From assembly GCA_965367995.1 (NCBI GenBank), contig CBDULE010000028.1:1-11902 (forward strand): DNA of 11,902 nucleotides. Reading direction: 5' to 3'. This document shows positions 2,681 through 2,934 of this stretch, piece after piece. The notes under the pieces were generated by a model. The model saw only the letters and a program-made list of their open reading frames with translations, did not search any database and was not told the origin of the DNA. A program made the position numbers and the translations under genes. Positions within the stretch are counted from its first letter, which is position 1, and each line of letters opens with the position of its first letter. This stretch comes from an uncultured archaeon. Its GTDB lineage: Archaea; Asgardarchaeota; Njordarchaeia; Njordarchaeales; Njordarchaeaceae.

Positions 2681-2735
2681 GGATGATGAAGAGGTGATCC
2701 TCGGAGTAAAAATGAAGAGAAAAATTTATCTGACA
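2681..2735 (+). ncRNA. C/D box sRNA candidate 2 (D' guide complementary to the 16S rRNA 3' terminus)
   Basis: Intergenic. Elements in order:
- C box ATGATGA, 2683-2689
- 12-nt guide AGAGGTGATCCT, 2690-2701
- D' box CGGA, 2702-2705
- 6-nt linker
- C' box ATGAAGA, 2712-2718
- 11-nt AU-rich guide, 2719-2729
- D box CTGA, 2730-2733

The GA dinucleotides needed for K-turn/K-loop formation are present in all four boxes. No clear terminal stem. Competing reading: GAGGTGATCC acts as an SD for a 28-codon ORF at 2712-2798. Confidence 0.5.
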
Positions 2736-2934
2736 TACATATTAACTACTGCATTTATGAATCCTCCAATCAGTAGCATTACTGCTTTCTTACCGTAAAA
2801 ACAGGGATTAAAATAATTCTTCCTGAACTCAATGATGCATAAAAATGCACAATAAAAATTCAGAACGCTGAATAAAATAAATAAAAAGCATTTTTTAGAT
2901 GATATTCTTGTTAAAAAAATGGGGTGTATTAAAA

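Follow-up and report, generated by a model that had tools for sequence, protein, structure and literature searches.

Guide RNAs directed to the 16S rRNA 3′ tail

Small RNAs that guide 2′-O-methylation of the 16S rRNA 3′ tail are known from archaea. In Nanoarchaeum equitans, Um1528, Gm1530 and Am1534 have been detected by MS and RiboMeth-seq and assigned to the sRNAs sR25, sR20 and sR13, respectively, and the 16S rRNA of Ignicoccus hospitalis carries Cm1533, so that tail methylation has verified precedent at positions 1528, 1530, 1533 and 1534 (PMC5389701). The sRNA sR13 has also been proposed to fill in for the RsmA checkpoint, which N. equitans lacks (PMC5389701). An earlier note on the DNA described here regarded a small RNA pairing with the anti-Shine-Dalgarno (anti-SD) tail as functionally unusual, a view at odds with the published sR13 (Am1534), sR20 (Gm1530) and I. 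hospitalis Cm1533 (PMC5389701).

The candidate sRNA identified here lies at positions 2680 to 2735 of the window, the whole 11,902-nt stretch of archaeal DNA that was analysed. Since tail guides and methyl marks have been published for Nanoarchaeum and Ignicoccus, it represents a new site and no new mechanism: the predicted Um1532 falls in a known hot spot where the anti-SD tail begins. The mechanism is ordinary and has experimental precedent, and exact positions are now available for testing. A literature search found no paper on sRNAs of the Njordarchaeales, an uncultured, Asgard-classified order that keeps several tail guides across all sampled genera.

Like sR13, the window sRNA is a compact C/D sRNA with a 12-nt, SD-like guide to the 16S tail (PMC5389701; sequence in PMC4644070), however sR13 pairs with nucleotides 1531-1540 through its D guide and marks A1534, whereas the window sRNA would pair with 1529-1538 through its D′ guide, with U1532 as the predicted target. 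The second guide of sR13 is functional (A1408), whereas the window sRNA has an orphan second guide and occurs in a genome that retains RsmA; a guide to helix 44 (1408) was absent from every homolog tested. All 14 genomes of the order have a match to the RrnaAD family with an E-value of 1e-41 or better. As RsmA is present in these genomes, the checkpoint argument made for sR13 does not transfer, and a role in replacing RsmA was rejected. The resemblance may as well reflect convergence on a conserved target as homology.

The D′ guide of N. equitans sR20 is nearly identical to that of the window sRNA; it likewise stands directly after box C, has AGGUGAUCC in common with it and pairs across GGAUCACCU, and Gm1530 has been verified. 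Its register is shifted by two, however (G1530 versus U1532), and its second guide is directed to 23S C1920. Although two earlier papers gave sR20 without a target, its treatment as an overlooked orphan was dropped, the target having later been assigned and verified (PMC5389701). Cm1533 of I. hospitalis is also a 2′-O-methylation in the tail of an archaeon retaining RsmA, but at a neighbouring site that corresponds to a C1533-aimed sister family in the Njordarchaeales. SNORD13 and snR45 are C/D RNAs that similarly pair near the small-subunit rRNA 3′ end (human 18S 1854-1859; PMC9670809), where they direct acetylation by NAT10/Kre33 in helix 45, using split antisense elements around a looped-out C and no N+5 rule; the window sRNA instead has one continuous 10-bp guide in canonical position, directed downstream of helix 45.

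Architecture of the candidate sRNA

All coordinates refer to the window, and 16S rRNA positions follow E. coli numbering. The candidate sRNA is located on the positive strand between a gene for a 446-aa protein, which ends at 2642, and a gene for a membrane protein, whose annotation begins at 2899 and whose probable start is 2936. The earlier note had read a box C, a 12-nt spacer, D′, C′, an 11-nt spacer and box D at this locus, together with a 10-nt match and a 28-codon open reading frame (ORF), and each of these was located in the sequence. Box C (AUGAUGA, 2683-2689) is followed by the 12-nt D′ guide (2690-2701), box D′ (CGGA, 2702-2705), box C′ (AUGAAGA, 2712-2718), an 11-nt, AU-rich D guide (2719-2729) and box D (CUGA, 2730-2733), 51 nt in total with both terminal boxes included. 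The terminal stem has two base pairs, G2681-C2734 and T2680-A2735, which join the 5′ strand of the K-turn stem, lying with the first bulge base, G2682, at 2680-2682, to its 3′ strand (2734-2735). Box C is AUGAUGA or AUGAAGA in every homolog and box D is CUGA in all but genome G008 (CAGA).

A strict C/D′/C′/D pattern gave 29 matches in this genome, against 0-1 in each of 10 shuffles and none in the reversed sequence, so its C/D sRNAs number at least 29 in an assembly that is 67% complete. Most of the 29 have 8-12 bp matches to the rRNA of relatives. Two box dialects are found among them, CUGA with AUGAUGA (n = 12) and CGGA with AUGAAGA (10/10 CGGA cases). The window sRNA follows the latter, which identifies CGGA as its D′ box, and such D′/C′ covariation is useful for calling the D′ register in this lineage. 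The D guide of the window sRNA, an orphan in its own genome, has the lowest G+C content (9%) of 58 guides. TATA-like words are concentrated at −35 to −40 upstream of box C among the 29 sRNAs, and TTTTAAAT at 2647-2654, on the positive strand 36 nt upstream of box C, is a possible archaeal TATA box for the window sRNA in this AT-rich genome.

The element combines terminal RUGAUGA/CUGA boxes, internal D′/C′ boxes of the K-loop type, spacers of 12 and 11 nt, a short K-turn stem and a guide of 10 bp with a Watson-Crick pair at N+5, in a genome that encodes L7Ae, Nop5 and fibrillarin family proteins; a second functional guide, common in C/D sRNAs but not required, is lacking. A covariance-model match to an Rfam family was absent on the element and on three homologs. 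Judged by its sequence, the element is a canonical and conserved archaeal box C/D sRNA, presumably transcribed.

Complementarity to the 16S rRNA 3′ tail

A search for 16S rRNA in the same genome was empty, no rRNA having been assembled, and two relatives, G005 of the same genus and the sRNA carrier G010, therefore supplied the 16S 3′ ends on which the complement was examined; three 23S genes completed the target set. Both 16S genes end in GGAUCACCUCCU. Ten contiguous nucleotides of complementarity to this tail, reported in the earlier note, were recovered on both ends: positions 2-11 of the D′ guide form ten Watson-Crick pairs with G1529-C1538, placing A2697 opposite U1532 at N+5. The assignment of U1532 by the N+5 rule thus holds in register on the relatives' 16S rRNA, with methylation at this site as its prediction. 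The tail is also the best site of the D′ guide in the relatives' 16S and 23S rRNA, the runner-up sites having nine pairs including two G-U. The chance of a 10-bp match between a random 12-nt guide and an 18-nt tail is 2.5e-5. Genome-wide, the 10-mer occurs once, in the window sRNA, with about 1.3 copies expected by chance, so the 10-mer by itself proves nothing and the case is carried by the box context and conservation. Archaeal RNPs use a 12-nt spacer with a substrate of at most 10 nt (PMC7229835), a geometry that the window D′ guide fits with ten pairs within its 12-nt spacer.

The D guide (2719-2729) has no match above 7 bp in the 16S or 23S rRNA of these relatives. In G001 and G003, the guide at the same position pairs over 11 bp with 16S rRNA around A915, where this and the other 9xx positions follow what we take to be the E. 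coli numbering. AU-rich D guides were also compared with species-specific pre-rRNA flanks, however the best runs, scoring 6.5-8 in the AT-rich flanks of G005, G010 and G006, were unconvincing. Single-guide C/D sRNAs are common (PMC6009581).

Conservation across the order

Box C with the guide motif occurs once in each of 11 of the 14 genomes of the order, with none in the reversed control, and allowing the box C variant AUGAAGA added G002, G005 and G008. A match in G009, considered as a register-shifted member, was rejected since it belongs to the separate C1533 family, leaving a U1532 sRNA family with one copy per genome in 13/14 Njordarchaeales genomes. No convincing copy was found in 386 other genomes of the phylum, where one stray match lacked the box layout. 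Matches to a relaxed pattern elsewhere among Asgard groups fall within ORFs or antisense to them, again without the box layout, and were discarded. Archaea beyond the phylum were covered with one exact pattern, which is blind to guides in the D position; its matches in bacteria and Methanospirillum are at chance level, the Methanospirillum match being the one inspected. Four metagenome contigs match, two of them with new sequences.

Nucleotides 1-11 of the D′ guide are invariant in the 13 genomes and two metagenome copies, while the unpaired base 12 varies. As base 1 is mismatched and bases 2-11 are paired, the homologs form exactly 10 bp. The spacer between box C and box D′ is 12 nt in all homologs and the D spacer is 10-12 nt, while the loop and the D guide are free to vary. 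A canonical CUGA in G002 and G008, in the same register as the CGGA of the window sRNA, fixes the register of the guide. As a D′/C′ combination, CUGA/AUGAUGA occurs in two homologs. Box D′ is degenerate (CUAA, CUAG) in three homologs of group f2, which may have lower activity or a shifted register. Next to the K-turn, Watson-Crick pairing is present in 14 of the 16 rows compared, one of which (G009) represents the sister C1533 family, and the pair changes among G-C, C-G and A-U; the stem reaches 24 of 32 against a shuffle mean of 10.8. These changes follow clades and therefore count as only two or three independent events. Retention of several tail guides in every genus sampled suggests that the modification or the pairing matters.

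This pattern also bears on the proposal that the RNA masks the anti-SD of the mature 30S subunit and thereby damps or redirects translation initiation. The predicted duplex of −19.4 kcal/mol exceeds the −7 to −11 kcal/mol of typical SDs in a genome that uses SDs, and in 30S complexes of archaea the anti-SD can be taken up by an RNA with a pseudo-SD (PMC11698992). However, the guide ends at C1538 with C1539 mismatched in all members, whereas a masker would gain from pairing with the CCU end. Conservation also extends to the four boxes and to the lengths of the two spacers, which a catalytic RNP needs. Nothing in this analysis favours anti-SD masking on mature ribosomes, and we regard it as very unlikely.

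The 28-codon open reading frame

An ORF of 28 codons runs from the ATG at 2712, supplied by box C′, to the TAA at 2798 on the positive strand. The earlier note offered, as an alternative to a guide RNA, an unusually long SD driving a hydrophobic peptide from this ORF. The ORF is present, and the 10-nt SD match surpasses the maximum of 9 found before 247 unambiguous starts in this genome. The 14-nt distance from GGTGA to the ATG, correctly given in that note, lies outside the distribution of a genome that uses SD sequences with an aligned spacing mode of 4-7 nt and in which 0/101 matches (≥5 nt) fall at 11-15.

Since ATG or GTG forms the start of each C′ box, every such box opens an ORF. ORFs opening at the 29 C′ boxes of the genome have 6-300 codons (median 13), and five others reach at least 28; in the homologs, those starting at the C′ ATG have 1-89 codons, three with an immediate stop. 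The reading frame is not kept among relatives, the DNA at 2734-2798 has no homolog in the order, and the predicted product of 2712-2798 has no Pfam or NCBIfam match. The C′ origin, the range of 1-89 codons, the spacing of 14 nt and the lack of a homolog for the downstream DNA led to rejection of the ORF, which on this comparative evidence is an accident of the C′ box and not a gene. With ORF lengths and SD spacing both against it, an SD-driven peptide has next to no chance of being correct.

Genomic context and eS27

The sRNA immediately precedes the eS27 gene in 11 of 13 genomes, and in five of them box D overlaps the eS27 SD. In the window's own genome and in G008 it is located away from eS27 with every box and guide intact; retention of the boxes and guide after departure from eS27 is expected of a trans-acting RNA. 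The own eS27 gene, on contig C34, lacks a C/D element upstream. An IS607 transposase gene with a probable TnpB-like ORF after it (L146:686-1306 and upstream) precedes eS27 at the place taken by the sRNA in relatives, and the insertion may be linked to relocation of the sRNA.

The association raises the alternative of a cis-acting element of the eS27 mRNA leader, either an L7Ae-bound K-turn or a ribosome standby site, with no trans guide. Adjacency to eS27 in 11/13 genomes and the overlap of box D with the SD in five agree with such an element, and leader K-turns can regulate translation in archaea (PMC5539422). However, the sRNA is intact away from eS27 in two genomes, one of which has an eS27 gene without the element, and overlap with a gene start, with loss of a guide target, is common in ordinary C/D sRNAs (PMC6009581). 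A cis-acting leader element is accordingly rated highly improbable, below even masking of the anti-SD.

Proposed mode of action

We consider it quite probable that the RNA joins L7Ae, Nop5 and fibrillarin in an RNP that recognises the tail of pre-16S rRNA by base pairing and methylates U1532. As a trans-acting box C/D sRNA of about 55-60 nt, it would bind L7Ae on its C/D K-turn and C′/D′ K-loop, with Nop5 and fibrillarin joining the complex. During small-subunit assembly, the D′ guide would pair with 16S nucleotides 1529-1538, and fibrillarin would 2′-O-methylate U1532, opposite the fifth nucleotide before box D′, after which the RNP would release the 16S tail. The pairing extends to G1529-A1531 at the base of helix 45, a region that is packed once the subunit has matured, suggesting that the RNP would act on pre-16S rRNA. 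The methyl group may influence stability of the tail at high temperature, and the D guide of the window copy has probably decayed to serve as a spacer.

Against methylation of U1532, the RNase fragment 1528-1532 of N. equitans is listed without a methyl group at this position (PMC5389701). No paper reporting Um1532 was found in a search of mostly open-access literature, with the Thermococcales and Sulfolobales modification tables outside its scope.

Sister tail-pairing families

A scan for other tail guides identified a second sRNA in the window's own genome (G000), on the minus strand of contig C13 at approximately 15315-15369 (L204/L196). Its D′ guide is directed to 16S C1535 and its D guide to A915, the latter being identical to the D guide of the U1532 family in G001 and G003. 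C1535 guides are also present in G002 and G008. A family aimed at C1533 occurs in the other 13 genomes of the order (L198-L203, L205-L210 and L157), and none was found in the window's own genome (67% complete). The D guide of this family is complementary to the U912 strand in 6/6 other members of genus g1 (four computed, two read); in G007, G011 and G013 the second guide has a 23S site and in G009 it is directed to the 16S 1377 region. A sister-family sRNA gave a sub-threshold match to Rfam sR14 (22.6 versus 38 bits). The C1533 family also matches the position of I. hospitalis Cm1533, for which the guide is given as unknown in PMC5389701.

Second guides recurrently target 16S 908-921. The adjoining strand is the partner of 1532-1534 in hALT, an assembly helix of bacteria with the pairs U921-A1534, G922-C1533 and A923-U1532 (PMC11182017). 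The 16S rRNA of G010 (L115) departs from normally conserved sequence, for instance in strand 908-921 and ahead of helix 45. This divergence, seen in the one f2 16S rRNA available, may explain why f2 tail sRNAs are without a second guide to U912 or A915.

These families invite a reading in which the RNP acts mainly as an assembly chaperone or checkpoint, holding the 16S tail unpaired during neck folding with the methyl group incidental or absent; by extension, together with sister sRNAs binding 908-921, it would control the pairing known in bacteria as hALT. The existence of three tail-guide families in the order (U1532, C1533 and C1535) agrees with this, as do the second guides, which point to U912 in the C1533 family of the six other genus members and to A915 in the U1532 family of G001 and G003 and the C1535 sRNA of G000, the contribution of hALT to E. 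coli 30S biogenesis (PMC11182017) and the checkpoint role proposed for sR13 (PMC5389701). However, the second guide is targetless in the window copy and 10 other homologs, which therefore form no clamp, the rationale for a checkpoint in Nanoarchaeum is inapplicable with RsmA/KsgA in 14/14 genomes, and hALT, for which only bacterial descriptions exist, contributes 1.2 kcal/mol (PMC11182017). A chiefly chaperone function is thus unlikely, and it is compatible with methylation rather than an exclusive alternative to it.

More tentatively still than the methylation of U1532, and with a chance that is low though slightly better than that of a mainly chaperone function, two to three sRNPs may tile the tail (U1532, C1533 and C1535), often gripping 908-921, to control tail placement and neck folding in the pre-30S subunit. 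If true, this would be an RNA-guided version of a step governed by RbfA and hALT in bacteria, with RsmA retained, and the window element would stand for U1532 in the set, having kept a single guide; its second guide being targetless, the window copy cannot clamp two strands.

Additional features of the window and genome

A second C/D sRNA occupies positions 1166-1218 of the window on the positive strand and lies upstream of the gene at 1302, a placement kept in three members of the genus. Eleven base pairs link its D′ guide to the 23S A-loop, at what we take to be the equivalent of U2552, and its D guide pairs over 8 bp approximately 63 nt upstream. Elsewhere in the genome, contig C76 carries an identical pair of C/D sRNAs on the minus strand (839 and 1795), 956 nt apart, representing either a local duplication or an assembly repeat. 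The window also encodes an unsplit RNA polymerase subunit A (4517-8590, positive strand; 1357 aa) containing Rpb1 domains 1-5, with no A′/A″ division.
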